DNA of 64,000 nt from Candidatus Kerfeldbacteria bacterium (GTDB taxonomy: Bacteria; Patescibacteriota; Patescibacteriia; SBBC01; CAIJZX01), in NCBI GenBank assembly GCA_016193315.1, contig JACPSJ010000001.1, positions 791,478 through 855,477 on the forward strand. Direction: 5' to 3'. Position 1 is the first letter of the stretch. Each line of letters begins with the position of its first letter. Below the pieces are notes generated by a model that ran no database searches, had not been told where the DNA came from, and saw only the letters and a program-made list of their open reading frames with translations. Made by a program: the position numbers and the translations under genes. This document shows, one piece after another, positions 1,678 to 29,494 of this stretch.

Positions 1678-1925
1678 ACCAGCCAGATCCGATCCCTAAC
1701 CGCAGCCGTCTCCGACGGGTGATCTACCCGGTCGTCGTCATCACTTACCTAGTCGCGGCCATCATCTTGGCGCTGGTGGCGATACGCTTTCTTTCCACTA
1801 ACCTCGGTCGAGCCATTGCTATTGACCAAGACATCGGACCGTCCCAGACTACTCATCTCGACCTGGAAACCTATCGCCGCGTCGCCAGACGGCTCGGCAT
1901 CCCCCGGGAGCTACCGCCACTCTAG
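1674..1925 (+). CDS. small single-TM hypothetical protein of the pil operon
   Basis: 83 aa, one hydrophobic helix, ATGA overlap with the pilO-like gene. Confidence 0.65.
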   Translation: MNQPDPIPNRSRLRRVIYPVVVITYLVAAIILALVAIRFLSTNLGRAIAIDQDIGPSQTTHLDLETYRRVARRLGIPRELPPL

Positions 1926-2371
1926 ATTTCACTCCAGGACGTGGCCGTAATCTCGCCGCTGGCGTCGAGCGGGTCGAGCGTAACCGACACTCTAATCGTT
2001 CGGATGTTTCGCTTCACCTGACCAACCGAGGTGATGGTCTTGTTGGTGTCGTCCCCTTCCACTGTCAGCCGCGCACAGCCGTCGTTATTCGAACAGCCGG
2101 TGCTGGGAACAAAATCGATAGCATAACACGGATTAGACACGTCACACAGGTACTTCTTGTTGCGGGCGATCCGTTGCAATGCATCGCGCGCTCCAGCTTC
2201 AGCAAAGAACAGCGCCTGTGAGGACTGAGCTGCCCCAGCACTGGTGCTGACCTGGATGAAGGTGCTCGAGGCCAGGCCCACCCCGACCGCCACCATAAAG
2301 ACCACCATGGCCAGGACGGCGGGGAGACTGGCAATGCCGCGGCGGCGGTTGTTTTGGAGAATCATGGCCAC
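1922..2371 (-). CDS. PilX/GspK-like minor pilin
   Basis: RRRG|IASLPAVL class III signal without Glu5; SSQALFFAEAG PilX N-terminal motif. Confidence 0.75.
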   Translation of the reverse strand: MAMILQNNRRRGIASLPAVLAMVVFMVAVGVGLASSTFIQVSTSAGAAQSSQALFFAEAGARDALQRIARNKKYLCDVSNPCYAIDFVPSTGCSNNDGCARLTVEGDDTNKTITSVGQVKRNIRTIRVSVTLDPLDASGEITATSWSEI

Positions 2372-23150: not shown

Positions 23151-23193
23151 ACGATTTTCATCGAGCCTACCAAAGCCAGCGTCGTAGGTCAAC

Positions 23194-23330
23194 TAGAACC
23201 TATCCTAAAAATCCATTCCGGCGCTGCGGCTCGGAATTTCGGGCTGCGGGGCTTCGCCTCGGACGCAAAATATCTCGATATTCCTCGTCCTCCGGCTCGC
23301 CCCTCGCCCGCGAAATTCCGTTCCTCGGCT
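23194..23330. repeat. palindromic element copy A (MITE/RPE-like)
   Basis: First 93 bp match the reverse complement of 63421-63513 at 87/93. Nested stems CGGAATTTCG/CGAAATTCCG, GGGGC/GCCCC, GGACG/CGTCC, AATATC/GATATT. Confidence 0.9.
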
Positions 23331-24378
23331 CGACAGCAGTTGGCCGTCCAGCACTGCGTCGACCTGAGCAGTCTCATGCTTGGTGCGGTGATCCTTGACT
23401 AAACGGTAGGGCTGGAGGACGTAGGAACGGATTTGATTACCCCAGGCCGCCTCGTGAAACTCGCCACGGAGCTGCTGTTTCTCGGCACTCTGTTTCTCCA
23501 GCTCAAGCCGATGCAGCTTGGCTTTCAGAATCTTTAACGCCGTTTCCTTGTTCTGCTGCTGCGAGCGCTCGTTCTGGACGGAGACCATGGTCTTGGTTGG
23601 CAGGTGGACGATCCGCACGGCCGAGTACGTAGTCTGCACGCTCTGACCACCGTGCCCCGAAGATAGAAAGGTGTCAATCCGCAGGTCTTTTGGATCAATC
23701 TTGATCTCTTCGACCGCTTCGAGTTCGGGTAACACTTCTACTAGCGCAAACGACGTGTGGCGCATCGCTTCGGCGTCGAACGGAGATATTCGGACCAAGC
23801 GGTGGACGCCGGCCTCGGACTTCAGATACCCGAAGGCATACCGACCCGCGACCTCGAAGGTAGTGCTCTTGATCCCGGCTTCTTGACCACGAGACTCATC
23901 AACCACTCGGGCCGGCCAGCCGCGGCGCTCGCAAAACCGGAGGTACATGCGGCGGAGCATCTCCACCCAATCTTGGGCGTCAGTGCCGCCGGCGCCGGCG
24001 TGGATGGCAACAATGGCGCTCCGCTCGTCATACCGATCAGCCAAGAGAAGTTGAAACTCGAGCTGTTGGAACCGCTCTTCCAGCTCAGCTACGTGCTGTT
24101 CGACCTCGGCCCGCTGGTCATTCTCAGCCACGCCGGCCAATTCAATCCACGCTCCAACATCCTTTTCGATCCGCTCCCAAGCATCAACTTCTTCCTTCAG
24201 TTCGCTCAGCCGCCGACTGTCAGCTTTGGCCCGAGGGCGGTTAACCCAAAAATCCGGCTGACTCATGGCCGCCTCGAGTTCAAGGATTATCTGTCGCCTT
24301 TGATCTAGGTCAAAGCAGCCTTCGCGAGGCAGCGGTTTTCTCGCGAAGGTGTTCCAAGCGTTTTACCAAGTCAGACAT
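23205..24378 (-). CDS. prfB: peptide chain release factor 2, +1 programmed frameshift
   Basis: MSDLVKRLEHLREKTAASRRLL then CTT-TGA-C, resuming DLDQRRQ..MSQPDFW; SPF and GGQ motifs; WGNQIRSY. Confidence 0.96.
24309..24315 (-). other. prfB +1 frameshift site CTTTGAC
   Basis: Canonical RF2 autoregulatory site at codon 22-23. Confidence 0.92.
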
Positions 24379-24393
24379 TAGACCCAGTCTAGC

Positions 24394-25164
24394 CTAACCC
24401 ACTGCCTTCGGCAAGGGACCGATAGCTCCCAAGCAGGACTGGAGTTTATCGGTAGCAGTCCATCCGCATTCCCCATTCTGCTGCCGTTCACATCGCGCCG
24501 TCCGATAGCAAGCGTACTCCTCGCGGTACTCGCACGTCGTCACCACTTCTTGATCGCTGCAGACCTGGCCGCTACAACCGGTGACCACACAACCTTCGCG
24601 GGTCCGACGATTCACGTTCGTGCCTGAGCGAGTCGCCCGGGAAAAGCGGAATGAGCCTAGCAGGCGCTCAAGCTGCTGGAGATGCCGACCACCAGCCATA
24701 ATAACCAGTGTCTGACCACGTAGATCAATCAGTACCTCCTGCAACCGGTCTTCAATGCCTTGAACGACATTCGACTTTTTCGCCGTCCGGCCGCCAACCA
24801 CCAAATCAGTGAAGGTCCGTGACGGCAAGAAACGCTTCTCGTCGGCCTCGACCTGGGTAAGTGATTCGGGTCTGACGGCCACGGTCAGTTCATCCTGACC
24901 AGCGACAATCGGTTCGCCGCGCTGATGTGGCGGAGACAGCACCAGCAACCGATCATCATTCTTATCCGTCGGCACGAATGGCTGCCACTCACCATGGTAC
25001 TGAAAACTGAACCCATAATCTTTGTTCCGATAATCAACAAACCGTAGCGACGAACTGCCCGGGCCAGGCTGGATCGCAAAATTCATGACCGCCAAGAACG
25101 CCGTCACCCCCAACAAGCCAATCAATACGGGGGTTAAGGGAGTGGTGGTACCTAGCGACGACAT
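24394..25164 (-). CDS. membrane-anchored PsbP-like protein with C-terminal cysteine-cluster domain
   Basis: TM, Y.NKDYGFSFQY..W..SFRF PsbP-like pattern, GCVVTGCSGQVC..TTCEY..ACY..RCE..ECGW. Confidence 0.75.
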   Translation of the reverse strand: MSSLGTTTPLTPVLIGLLGVTAFLAVMNFAIQPGPGSSSLRFVDYRNKDYGFSFQYHGEWQPFVPTDKNDDRLLVLSPPHQRGEPIVAGQDELTVAVRPESLTQVEADEKRFLPSRTFTDLVVGGRTAKKSNVVQGIEDRLQEVLIDLRGQTLVIMAGGRHLQQLERLLGSFRFSRATRSGTNVNRRTREGCVVTGCSGQVCSDQEVVTTCEYREEYACYRTARCERQQNGECGWTATDKLQSCLGAIGPLPKAVG

Positions 25165-25785
25165 TTAAGGTCGGAGGTGAAAGGTGTCGAGCATTCCGTT
25201 TTCCTCCATTCGGCCGACAGTCACGACATACAGCCGGCCATTAGTCTTGATACCAATGTAGTCCGTTCCGAGGCCGGAGAAACGGACCCGTTTACCCGCC
25301 ACCCCGTCCAAAGTGAAGTCCGTCACCCGATAACCGGCTTCACCTTCATAGACGGTGGCCCATTGAGTAATGGTTTGGACCGTGCCGATTGATTTAATCG
25401 CCTCGCGGGTTTCGGTTGCGACCCCATCCCAAAAAACGATTTCTTCGGCCGCGGACCGCGACTGGTCGACCGACCAGCCCGGTGGTAACTTCAGGTCAAA
25501 CCCCAAATCGGAATTGCCGTAGTCCGTCCAGCCGGCGGTGGGGTTAATCACCGTATTCGTAACATTCGCATTTTCATTCCTCTCAATGGTGTTCACCACG
25601 ATCATCTCATTCACGTTCTCATAGCCTGGGACTGGGACGTAGGAAGACGTAATGCCCGCGTTGCGGTTCGTAGGACTACTATTCTTTGCCGTCGGGATGG
25701 AAAGATTCAAGACTACTAAAAACGCGGCCACCGCCAGGAGGCTGACAATGATCGGCGTCAGGACGACCGAGGCGCGACGGTCCAC
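25165..25785 (-). CDS. membrane-anchored PsbP-like protein
   Basis: TM, Asn-rich linker, WTDY.NSDLGFDLKLP.GW..MLDTFHL. Confidence 0.75.
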   Translation of the reverse strand: MDRRASVVLTPIIVSLLAVAAFLVVLNLSIPTAKNSSPTNRNAGITSSYVPVPGYENVNEMIVVNTIERNENANVTNTVINPTAGWTDYGNSDLGFDLKLPPGWSVDQSRSAAEEIVFWDGVATETREAIKSIGTVQTITQWATVYEGEAGYRVTDFTLDGVAGKRVRFSGLGTDYIGIKTNGRLYVVTVGRMEENGMLDTFHLRP

Positions 25786-25789
25786 AATC

Positions 25790-25900
25790 CTAGAACGCTA
25801 GGCTCATGACAATAATAAAAGCGCCGATGGCGATAAAGATGACCAGCGCCGGGACGAGCGAAAAGCTACTTTTTTTGCTCCCTTTTTGTGTTAGATCCAT
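25790..25900 (-). CDS. 36-aa single-helix membrane peptide (below ORF-track cutoff)
   Basis: MDLTQKGSKKSSFSLVPALVIFIAIGAFIIVMSLAF*. TGGTATACT promoter at 25933-25941; helix matches those of the two downstream genes. Confidence 0.8.
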   Translation of the reverse strand: MDLTQKGSKKSSFSLVPALVIFIAIGAFIIVMSLAF

Positions 25901-25955
25901 CGTTCGATGGTAGTTACTAATCAATAATTCTTAGTATACCACTTCTGTGACGACG

Positions 25956-26021
25956 TTACGATTTGTAGATAACCACCGGCGTCCCCCCCTCGGCCCAGTC
26001 AAATAACCAGGCCGCCGTGTC
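25956..26021 (-). pseudogene. orphan 3' end of a second L,D-transpeptidase allele
   Basis: Encodes DTAAWLFDWAEGGTPVVIYKS* versus DTAAWLFDWADVGTPVVIYKS* at 26137-26202; 29-bp identical core. Confidence 0.85.
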
Positions 26022-26055
26022 AGTGGGTCCGAGCCGCACCCGGCTGCGCCGGGTA

Positions 26056-26120
26056 GCAGGCAAACTGCTTTGCCTGCGGCGGCGAGGACGAGGGCGGCGA
26101 TCCCCCGACTTGATCGGGGG
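26056..26120. repeat. two short REP-like hairpins
   Basis: GCAGGCAAA-CTGC-TTTGCCTGC and CCCCCGA-CTTGA-TCGGGGG. Confidence 0.7.
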
Positions 26121-26136
26121 CGCCGCGCCCAGGAAA

Positions 26137-27549
26137 CTAGCTTTTGTAAATCACCACCGGAGTACCAACATCCGCCCAGTCAAATAACCAGGCCGCCGTG
26201 TCGAGTGGCTGCCCCACGCAGCCGTGGCTGCGCGGCCGAATGCCAAAATCATTGTGCCAGTACACGCCGTGCAGTGAGTAGTCGCCCTTGAACCATAAGA
26301 TATTCGGCACGTTCGGAACGTAATAATCCGGGCCGGACATCTTCTGTTTCTTAGTCTTGGCATAGACACGAAAACTGCCAGTCGGCGTCCAGTCATTAAT
26401 GCCAGTTGAAACCTTGGAAGAATAAACTAGCGTCCCATCCTGGTAGACAAATTCCATTTGCTTGCTAATGTCGACGGCGATGACTTTGCCGGTCGGCAGC
26501 GGTGCGGGCGGCGTAGTCGCATGCAGGGTCGGGGCTGGGACCTCATCCATTGGCAGTTCCGGGGCAGCCAGGGCCGGGTTGAGAACGGCCGTGCTAACCA
26601 AGGCCACAGATTGTGGCACATTCAACCGCCGTCCTGAGCTGCCAGGGGTGATGGTTTCGGTATTATTGGCGCTGACCAGCACCTGTTGCGGTTGCGGTTC
26701 AACATTCACCTTGGTGGCCAAAGAAAATATATAGCTGCCGATGGCCGCCTCATTAACGGCGATGGCTACCTGGCCTGGCTGTTCGACGGCGGTGTCGTAT
26801 TGAAACCATCCGGCTAACGTTCCGGTATCAATGGGGAAATCTTGCCCGTTTACCCGGAGCGTCAGTGGTTGGCCCAATCGCGCTTCCGCCTGGGCGATGG
26901 CCGGAACGAAATCTCCCGCCTCGACATCTGGCCACTCGATTTTTGGCTCGAGCGCCAGCGTCGCCGCTTGCCCCAGCCTAGCCGCCGCGTGCAGTTGTTC
27001 TTGAAACGCTTCATCATCGATCACCAGGCCGGCTCGCGCCAGGCTGACCACCAAGTGACCGTCCCGGAACGTGACTGCTGGTTCGACCGGCGGGGAACCG
27101 ACGGCAGCAATGATCTGAGACAAGTAACGAACCAGCCCATCGTTAGTCCAGGTGTAGCTGATGGGAATCGCTTGTCGTCGCACCTCAACCGCGAACCACC
27201 GTGGCAGCGGGCTGAAACGCCCAATGCCGTAGGCCTGATGAAGCGGCGGCACCAGATCGAAAACGAGACCGAGGTCGCGGTAGGATGGTTTCCAGGTACG
27301 ATCTTGGTAGACCAGCGTCACCTGGCGGCTGGCCAGTTCTTGTTCCAGCCGGTGTTTGGCCTCGGCTAAGGTCAACCCACCGACGGGTACGTTACCGATC
27401 CGGACACCAGGCAGAATGCGCGGTCCAAAGGCGTGACCAATCCCAACTAACCCGGTGGCCACCACCAGGCCGACTGCCAACCACCACCATCGCGCGTGAT
27501 CAGCGCTTGGCGATCGTGGCTGCAGCTGGGTTTTTCTTGGCCGCGGCAT
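26137..27549 (-). CDS. L,D-transpeptidase (YkuD family) with peptidoglycan-binding repeats
   Basis: TM, ILPGVRIG.VPVGGLT, VDISKQ..VSTG..TPTG.F..LHGVYWH..SHGCV catalytic motif. Confidence 0.92.
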   Translation of the reverse strand: MPRPRKTQLQPRSPSADHARWWWLAVGLVVATGLVGIGHAFGPRILPGVRIGNVPVGGLTLAEAKHRLEQELASRQVTLVYQDRTWKPSYRDLGLVFDLVPPLHQAYGIGRFSPLPRWFAVEVRRQAIPISYTWTNDGLVRYLSQIIAAVGSPPVEPAVTFRDGHLVVSLARAGLVIDDEAFQEQLHAAARLGQAATLALEPKIEWPDVEAGDFVPAIAQAEARLGQPLTLRVNGQDFPIDTGTLAGWFQYDTAVEQPGQVAIAVNEAAIGSYIFSLATKVNVEPQPQQVLVSANNTETITPGSSGRRLNVPQSVALVSTAVLNPALAAPELPMDEVPAPTLHATTPPAPLPTGKVIAVDISKQMEFVYQDGTLVYSSKVSTGINDWTPTGSFRVYAKTKKQKMSGPDYYVPNVPNILWFKGDYSLHGVYWHNDFGIRPRSHGCVGQPLDTAAWLFDWADVGTPVVIYKS

Positions 27550-28927: not shown

Positions 28928-29494
28928 CTATTGCATAGTGAACTGGGGCGAGTAGACGTATCGGGCATCTGGGAGCAACCAATCGTGTTCGTCCACCTGT
29001 CGGCCACGGAGAAAGGGAACTGCTATCCGGTAGACACCTGTCGGGGCCTGGCCGTAAACTTCCCCCAGCTGATTTACGCGAATCAGTCCGTCCCACTGGG
29101 CCGTCTTGAGATCGTGGCGGGGAAATTCGGCCGACCCAAAGCTGGCCGCTTCACAGGTTTGGCCAGTCAGGTTGACGGCCGCCGAGGCATCATCCTCTAC
29201 CTGCTCCAATCGCCACCACGAGGTCGCACAGCCGTCGGCCCGCTCCGCCAGCCAAATCTTCACTGGGCTATTGTTGCGGAGCGAAATGAGCACCGGTTCA
29301 CCGGGCTGATAAACATCTTTGTCAACCCGCAGCAGAAGCCGGACTCCGCGCGGCAACGGCGGCGGCGCTGTTTCGTCGACCTGCGCACCGAGAATCTCGT
29401 TCGAGGCCTGAAAGATTAATAACAGCATGATCCCCCACCCCAGCAGCAGGGCGATGACCACCGCAAAGCTTACCCGTTGGGTGACTATCGCCAT
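28928..29494 (-). CDS. membrane-anchored hypothetical Ig-like protein
   Basis: TM, then DKDVYQPGEPV.I.L.N..W....G.YRI beta-sandwich pattern. Confidence 0.7.
   Translation of the reverse strand: MAIVTQRVSFAVVIALLLGWGIMLLLIFQASNEILGAQVDETAPPPLPRGVRLLLRVDKDVYQPGEPVLISLRNNSPVKIWLAERADGCATSWWRLEQVEDDASAAVNLTGQTCEAASFGSAEFPRHDLKTAQWDGLIRVNQLGEVYGQAPTGVYRIAVPFLRGRQVDEHDWLLPDARYVYSPQFTMQ

Follow-up and report, generated by a model that had tools for sequence, protein, structure and literature searches.

The question raised by this locus is why a single membrane helix should recur at the start of three adjacent genes, the first of which encodes only 36 amino acids (aa). These genes, referred to as the small open reading frame (ORF), gene 2 and gene 3, lie in the 64,000-nucleotide stretch of DNA analysed here (the window), which corresponds to G000:C1:791478-855477 in a genome (G000) of 1.15 Mb in 6 contigs. 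An earlier note on this DNA had taken them for a major subunit and two decorated minor subunits of a novel filament or membrane complex. Comparison of sequences places the three genes in a lineage-restricted family of single-helix surface proteins from a group of ultrasmall bacteria of groundwater, in which a constant N-terminal membrane helix precedes differing outer domains. The helix may be a shared assembly helix for a mixed surface complex in which the 36-residue protein is a headless accessory subunit, not the main building block of a fibre; this is regarded as the best explanation, and is given slightly less than an even chance of being right.

A constant helix with differing outer domains

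The three ORFs are all read from the minus strand and lie between prfB and an L,D-transpeptidase gene that is itself preceded by a gene for an HtrA-like protease. Their coordinates and translations, the promoter and the helix motif were confirmed as first described: the GTG start of gene 2 is found 4 nt past the stop of the small ORF, and gene 3 abuts gene 2. The N-terminal helices align over 22 residues as quoted, with pairwise identities of 8/22, 8/22 and 12/22, and are mutual best matches among the 1105 predicted membrane segments of G000. The three best ungapped matches of the small ORF in that set are gene 2, gene 3 and a fourth paralog, with BLOSUM scores of 50, 42 and 52 (next best 37; mean 12, standard deviation 7). 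When a profile made from the helix columns of 25 longer members from other genomes was searched against 27,154 six-frame segments, the small ORF ranked 4th, after the three paralogs; this match is weak (E=0.069), and the next is found at E=2.5. The motif thus does not occur among generic signal anchors at background frequency. The fourth copy (G000:C1:788397-789020) is located between smpB and infC, about 2.5 kb before the start of the window, and is a paralog of gene 2 over its whole length (37% identical over 196 aa, and in nucleotides 74% identical over 223 bp), so that the gapless likeness of the helices is partly plain paralogy. Genes 2 and 3 resemble each other essentially only in the helix and a few residues beyond.

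Both longer genes had been credited with PsbP-like domains. This holds for gene 3, whose head has a PsbP fold in the predicted structure, with look-alikes at TM-scores of 0.63-0.70 that include PsbP and PsbP_2 clusters; gene 3 itself has no Pfam match for this head, while relatives in the family pass PF18933. The head of gene 2 is probably PsbP-like, on the weaker ground of a match to NF040946 (E=0.052), its single-sequence model being unusable (predicted local distance difference test, pLDDT, 41). The cysteine cluster noticed in gene 3 is an eight-cysteine domain that matches TIGR04289 (E=1.2e-8, model positions 6-52) and TIGR04292 (E=3.6e-9), both below the cut-off (for TIGR04289, 35.5 bits against 50). 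A search of 61 genomes with the whole gene 3 protein found relatives in 14, mostly through this domain. Throughout the family the helix is followed by Asn/Thr-rich linkers and then by varied heads: 16 of 42 longer members match Pfam PsbP_2 or PsbP at E<=0.01, and 23 match no Pfam family.

The helix family is present in 11 of the 12 genomes of this Patescibacteria family, namely G000 and 10 of the 11 others. A 10-row profile matched these 10 and one of nine other genomes of the order, and a 34-row profile again matched 10 of the 11. In a sample of the class, 28 of 301 genomes were matched at E<=0.01, 20 of them outside the family; after reading, five of these were accepted, five were SecE look-alikes, and the remainder were generic or doubtful anchors. 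The accepted genomes comprise G196 and G159, both of one other family and each with a helix-only ORF followed by a gene combining the helix with the eight-cysteine domain, and three genomes of family f37, each of which has a single long member. By these alignments the helix family reaches two other families of the class; later matches to the same five genomes are circular, since these had by then entered the alignment. A phylum sample gave matches in 10 of 401 genomes at E<=0.005, the eight outside the family being weak (E>=3e-4) and read as generic anchors. Identity of the helix with SecE was considered and rejected: the five weak class-level matches are ordinary SecE genes, and the likeness, seen in single weak matches only (E 0.04-0.1), was judged generic. 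Database labels assign one helix-only homolog of the same family to Candidatus Kerfeldbacteria and others to Patescibacteria.

Within the family the genes occupy four genomic slots, htrA-prfB, rplU-recR, smpB-infC and ftsA-ftsZ, often as tandem arrays, and are flanked by housekeeping genes that differ by slot. The names of the slot genes were assigned from their sequences. A metagenome scan anchored on an independent neighbouring gene yielded three loci, only one of which is long enough to show its slot. The family helix is absent from the libraries searched (Pfam, NCBIfam, PDB and PHROG); the best PDB match of its profile, a transmembrane segment of a protein of the tumour necrosis factor receptor family (E=0.021), was judged due to chance. 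No description of the family was found in the literature searched, which largely excluded subscription papers and did not cover supplements; protein-family tables for the candidate phyla radiation (CPR) in PMC6744442 may list some of the longer members. The helix family is apparently a real, undescribed and lineage-restricted module that includes a conserved microprotein.

The helix comes in two subtypes, one of LTP/LIP and one of PIAVMAF type, which are found together in most genomes of the family (loci L017, L020, L021, L082, L083, L093 and L095), and the headless member often has the subtype that its neighbours lack (G003, G004, G008). At L087:4364-11160 (G010), six helix-led surface genes are found between rplU and recR, three of them with a variant helix and near-identical N-termini.

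Helix-only genes

Helix-only ORFs are found in six of the 12 family genomes (G000, G001, G003, G008, G009 and G011, representing 4/7 genera) and in G196 and G159, and in all eight the stop codon falls 0-2 residues past the 22-residue helix. A search of six-frame translations with a helix profile, which the earlier note had suggested, thus did recover conserved small ORFs, and in 5/8 genomes (G000, G001, G003, G159 and G196) they head an array of longer members. The order in G003 is that of the window: L,D-transpeptidase, small ORF, two helix-plus-domain genes, eight-cysteine domain and prfB. In the other three (G008, G009 and G011) the helix-only ORF stands alone, followed in G009 and G011 by a terminator-like hairpin. 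Headless forms with Asn/Thr tails of 38-53 residues occur in G004, G002 and the metagenome locus L158. A search with the helix-only alignment at E<=0.5, whose first pass can miss tiny ORFs, found no helix-only form in G006, G007, G002, G010 and G005 (99, 100, 100, 88 and 86% complete), nor was one found in the three f37 genomes.

In four orthologue pairs of 22 codons, the proportions of nonsynonymous and synonymous differences (pN/pS) are 0.19/0.86, 0.24/0.83, 0.25/0.79 and 0.19/0.68. Exact ratios of the corresponding rates (dN/dS) are not given because pS is near saturation; the proportions nevertheless indicate purifying selection on the helix-only type, which, recurring as it does in eight genomes, is not a mere unconserved truncated paralog. 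For the small ORF of the window, pN/pS is 0.33/0.79 and 0.37/0.69 against G009 and G001, and against the most distant members pN reaches or exceeds pS (0.53/0.52 for G003, 0.59/0.53 for G196). Helix-only ORFs from other genomes account for two of the three best matches of the window peptide, the paralogs in its own genome coming 8th of 41, and the best match lies in the same genome for only one of seven helix-only ORFs. The helices of helix-only ORFs are 0.38 identical to those of same-genome neighbours and 0.38 to those of other genera. On a tree of the 22 helix columns, mostly unresolved with 22 of 39 inner branches open, the helix-only label needs seven changes, and 192 of 500 shuffles are as low.

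The motif TGGTATACT upstream of the small ORF is a real promoter-type word in G000, with 28 copies against 3.3 expected under an order-2 Markov model, 23 of them near a gene start on the same strand. The site is not listed by a standard sigma-70 scan because that scan requires a -35 box. Similar -10 motifs were recognised by eye upstream of the helix-only ORFs in G001, G009, G011 and G003. The small ORF can alternatively be read as 44 aa from TTG 25924, but the ATG is preferred because it leaves space after the -10 motif, as in the relatives. An assembly error at the early stop was rejected, since contigs from three of four sequencing runs span window positions 23334-26600 with zero differences (the fourth run covers them in two overlapping pieces), with the proviso that these runs are possibly the source data of the assembly. 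A prediction of the small protein as a complex of four copies, based on an alignment of 40 rows, gave a score of 0.11 against a mark of 0.42 and was counted neither way, and the ESM Atlas returned only matches below 0.9 for the small protein.

Role of the helix and rival explanations

The family helix is likely a degenerate prepilin-type helix. A basic-x-Gly motif right before the hydrophobic stretch is found in 20/35 longer members, 0/8 helix-only proteins and 4/68 ordinary single-pass anchors of G000, two of the four lying in pilin operons; the counts become 24/35, 3/8 and 6/68 when Ala is allowed, and 26/35, 5/8 and 12/68 when Ser is allowed as well. In a set of 27 further proteins described below, the residue four positions ahead of the conserved Pro is Gly in 17 and Ala in 7, together 24/26. 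Prepilin peptidases need Gly, Ala or Ser at -1 (PMC4371748, PMC4471445); the residue would be Ser in the small ORF and Ala or Ser in gene 2. Two canonical pilins of G000 have Ser at -1, so the KKSS/F junction of the small ORF could be cut. About 21 mostly hydrophobic residues follow the site in the family, as the criterion for type IV pilins given in PMC4471445 has it. That the pilin signature is absent, as had been stated, is right in that Glu or Asp at +5 is lacking, but the pilin-like leader had been overlooked, together with the Pro found in the place of Glu5 (+4 to +6; 42/43 aligned rows). According to the same review, Glu5 is dispensable for cutting and needed for bacterial homopolymers, and Glu5 mutants enter mixed filaments (PMC4471445). 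The family profile is in register with the leaders of Glu5-less PilX-type pilins at a score of 16.8 (four control anchors reach 3-13, and Glu5 pilins 8), though at an hhalign probability of only 4%. The machinery is present in G000, which has one prepilin peptidase, six PilB-like and two PilT-like ATPases, platform proteins and 11 canonical pilin motifs; the two kinds of ATPase were told apart by length and context, and platform genes were recognised by position and sequence, not by profile.

Whether the helix is conserved beyond what a plain anchor needs, as had been claimed for its gapless alignment, is a point on which the evidence is mixed. A search for longer proteins gave 42 matches among 8000 scored candidates; removal of the fourth paralog, and of 14 proteins whose helix had been part of the training set, leaves 27 further proteins. 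Their helices are 68% identical, and 85% identical over the first 13 positions, figures that are weakened by a word-seeded search favouring near-identical helices and by sequences that may be close kin. Among 300 ectodomain pairs from 25 of these proteins, 177 have no BLAST similarity and yet share a helix that is 69% identical, whereas 19 mixed canonical pilins, taken as the comparison set, share 37%. Counted from the conserved Pro, positions +7, +10 and +18 are small in 27/27, and Pro0 and Phe11 are present in 24/27. That the helix is kept across unrelated outer domains is the stronger part of this evidence, and fits a shared assembly role. Identity across genera is 0.37 (450 pairs), above that of two other orthologous anchors (0.23 and 0.29) and of unrelated anchors (0.14 in fixed register, 0.24 at best shift); within genomes it is 0.46.

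These patterns suggest that members of the family may co-assemble through the helix. In such a scheme, they would insert with the N-terminus inside and the C-terminus outside, and prepilin peptidase would trim the short leader in those that keep the site. Phe at +11 and the small residues at +7, +10 and +18 would then mediate the packing of the helices. On its Asn/Thr-rich linkers the mixed complex would display PsbP-like and disulfide-rich heads that would serve in adhesion or binding, and the headless subunit would space or fill the assembly.

Several results, besides the bias of the search just mentioned, weigh against this reading. The cross-genus identity of 0.37 is no higher than that of the orthologous anchors of HtrA (0.35) or of a neighbouring hypothetical protein (0.48), and neither small residues nor conservation show a significant one-face periodicity (shuffle p 0.60 and 0.25). 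Gene 3 is without a prepilin-like site, the spacing between Gly/Ala and Pro is not constant in the family (3 to 5 residues), and the probability of the link to PilX-type leaders is low. None of the family genes adjoins any pilus machinery. The small ORF of the window is on a long branch, without a close relative from which its own dN/dS could be taken, and related genomes are not independent samples.

Among the alternatives, the longer members may be Glu5-less minor pilins or adhesins, cut by the peptidase and loaded on ordinary type IV pili, with the helix-only proteins remaining in the membrane as competitors or regulators of this loading. The Gly/Ala at a fixed position after basic residues argues for this, as do the six PilB-like ATPases, a PilX-type pilin in a G000 pilin operon that also has Pro at +5, and the acceptance of Glu5 mutants in mixed filaments. 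It is nevertheless thought unlikely, since a low-complexity Asn/Thr linker and not a pilin head follows the helix, 15 of 35 longer members are without the Gly site, and linkage to pilus operons is lacking; moreover, 34 members gave no pilin match in Pfam or NCBIfam up to E=1, all 11 PF07963 matches in G000 lie elsewhere, no pilin was found among PDB matches up to E=10, and with a profile of 19 local Glu5 pilins no family member scores above 8.4 bits. A filament or coat that is extruded, made mainly of the helix-only peptide and decorated by domain-bearing members, which is close to what the earlier note proposed, is improbable to a marked degree. The position of the small ORF first, behind a promoter-like site or heading a pair, in 5/8 genomes, the purifying selection on it and the headless members with short Asn/Thr tails are all in keeping with such a filament. 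Its supposed major subunit, however, has the weakest processing site of the family, the Gly form occurring in none of the eight, and with only 0-2 residues past the helix the fibre would presumably have no polar surface. Bacterial Glu5 mutants form no homopolymers (PMC4471445), and the patchy distribution of the helix-only form, not found in the nearly complete G006, G007 and G002 (99-100%) nor in f37, with its seven changes on a weak tree being no fewer than in shuffles, leaves the division into major and minor subunits unsupported; likewise, no Flp pilin match was found in G000 and no phage coat match for the helix-only proteins.

The helix could also be a recognition tag read in the membrane by a separate partner, such as a chaperone, a protease or a glycosylation or sorting machine, in which case members would not self-assemble and the helix-only proteins would be decoys or regulators of that partner. 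Strong conservation without periodicity would be explained in this way, as would the four scattered slots and the stand-alone small genes, and the conserved hydrophobic domain of Haloferax pilins reportedly acts beyond pilus assembly (PMC4371748); among the loci read, however, none has a candidate partner gene that accompanies the family, and the tag is regarded as rather improbable. The least probable of the readings is that of an ordinary signal anchor spread by duplication and domain shuffling, with the helix-only ORFs as tolerated remnants. It accounts for the whole-gene paralogy of gene 2 and the fourth copy, for helices that are more alike within genomes than across genera, where identity equals that of some ordinary anchors, and for the scatter of helix-only forms on the tree. 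It is opposed by the stop at 0-2 residues past the helix in all eight cases, by pN far below pS, by promoter-like and terminator-like sites of their own, by a helix kept where ectodomains share nothing, and by small ORFs that are rarely most like the paralogs of their own genome.

A bolder form of the assembly reading, to which only a small probability is attached, is that of a new Patescibacteria surface apparatus and bacterial counterpart of the archaeal bindosome, in which a Glu5-less, proline-marked pilin-like helix polymerises, headless microproteins form the scaffold and interchangeable PsbP-like and disulfide-rich heads, joined to it by the same helix, set host specificity. Much about how Patescibacteria attach to and choose their hosts has yet to be settled, and for the majority of their surface proteins no function is known (PMC6744442). 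This family brings dozens of such proteins together under a common module, and its conserved microprotein is easily missed by gene callers. If the helix drives co-assembly, this would be a new route for displaying variable adhesins, and Glu5-less pilin-type helices would be more widespread in bacteria than the standard definition admits.

Surroundings of the locus and comparison with known systems

Table 1. Features of the three-gene locus, in window positions.
Feature	Position	Strand	Evidence
Extended -10 promoter motif TGGTATACT	25933..25941	-	Genome word count, nearness to gene starts
36-aa helix-only ORF: short basic leader, then family helix up to the stop codon	25790..25900	-	Counterparts in 7 other genomes
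Family helix of the small ORF, residues 15-36; prepilin-site-like KKSS/F junction before it, Pro at +5	25793..25858	-	
Gene 2, 206 aa: family helix, Asn/Thr-rich linker, probable PsbP-like head; paralog of G000:C1:788397-789020	25165..25785	-	
Family helix of gene 2, residues 9-30	25696..25761	-	
Gene 3, 256 aa: family helix, predicted PsbP-like head, eight-cysteine domain	24394..25164	-	
Family helix of gene 3, residues 10-31; no Gly/Ala/Ser prepilin-like site ahead	25072..25137	-	
Predicted PsbP-like domain of gene 3, about residues 35-176	24637..25062	-	Predicted-structure look-alikes, TM 0.63-0.70
Eight-cysteine-cluster domain of gene 3, about residues 190-248	24421..24597	-	TIGR04289 and TIGR04292, both below cut-off

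On the upstream side of the locus, a 60-nt stretch from the 3' end of the L,D-transpeptidase gene is present twice (window 25962-26021 and 26143-26202, 87% identical), and palindromic repeats separate the two copies. The duplicate lies immediately before the promoter, and the read contigs support it. On the downstream side, prfB apparently ends in a 142-bp repeat (window 23193-23334) identical to G000:C1:17140-17281. At 23334 the contigs from three runs go on for 97 different letters, so that the end of prfB probably reflects a mis-join of the assembly at the repeat and not a genuine replacement of the C-terminus. The sequence CTT TGA C, found near the start of prfB (window about 24308-24322, minus strand), matches the programmed +1 frameshift site of release factor 2. 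Several short palindromic repeat families and an element resembling a miniature inverted-repeat transposable element, with diverged copies, are present in G000 (e.g. C1:316160-316239, C1:82438-82463 and C5:70219-70242). Elsewhere in the window, a conserved single-pass protein of 188 aa is encoded at 28928-29494; its membrane helix contains an invariant GWG, two of its cysteines are likewise invariant, and it has no Pfam match. At 1922-2371 (minus strand), a pilin cluster includes a PilX-type pilin that lacks Glu5 and has Pro at +5. The PilB-like ATPases are found at G000:C1:17857, 41595, 298857, 461410 and 803169 and at C5:61752, two of them without a neighbouring pilin or platform gene, and the prepilin peptidase is encoded at about 305,100-306,040 of G000:C1.

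Among known systems, the Pam pili of Ca. Mycosynbacter amalyticus are likewise a filament specific to the CPR and not of type IV, but they are built from immunoglobulin-like pilins of 39-55 kDa by donor-strand exchange, and nothing like the helix family is described in the consulted part of that account (PMC13278184). Flp/Tad pilins and inovirus major coat proteins share with the helix-only protein a very short and mostly helical form. Unlike Flp/Tad pilins, the family has no Glu5; G000 gave no match to PF04964, for which a Caulobacter control was positive, and no separate search for a tad locus was made. The basic end of the small peptide is N-terminal, which is presumably the reverse of inovirus coats; six helix-only proteins gave no PHROG match better than E=0.08, and their flanks are housekeeping genes. 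The small peptide has about 24 residues past its putative site, and the shortest type IVb prepilin named in PMC4471445 has 44 residues.

Closer likenesses are found among Glu5-less PilX-type minor pilins of Patescibacteria type IV pili, including the modular PilX1 and PilX2 of Nanosynbacter lyticus, which combine a basic-x-Gly leader and no Glu5 with accessory domains (PMC11623550). Their leaders are the best profile match of the family among those tried, at the 4% probability given above. They lie in pilus operons, those of N. lyticus having a lollipop pilin fold (PMC11623550), unlike the family with its low-complexity linker after the helix and its unrelated genomic slots. By Glu5 and by profile, the family fails membership of the bacterial type IV pilins, and it likewise fails that of Flp pilins and inovirus coats.

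By analogy, the family may work most like the PilA set of Haloferax and the bindosome of Sulfolobus, where one pilin-type hydrophobic segment is common to several proteins. PilA1-6 of Haloferax volcanii are archaeal adhesion pilins, each able to form pili, which share an almost fully conserved hydrophobic domain (H-domain) (PMC4371748). The family differs from them in its PsbP-like and cysteine-rich heads on long linkers and in its headless member, and library and PDB profile searches gave no sequence match to Haloferax pilins. Bindosome subunits, as the family may, carry pilin-type N-terminal signals fused to unrelated domains, their assembly being described as proposed and not visualised in a 2014 review (PMC4471445). 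The bindosome consists of ABC-type binding proteins with a dedicated bas operon, whereas the family is bacterial, is without linked machinery and includes a headless subunit.

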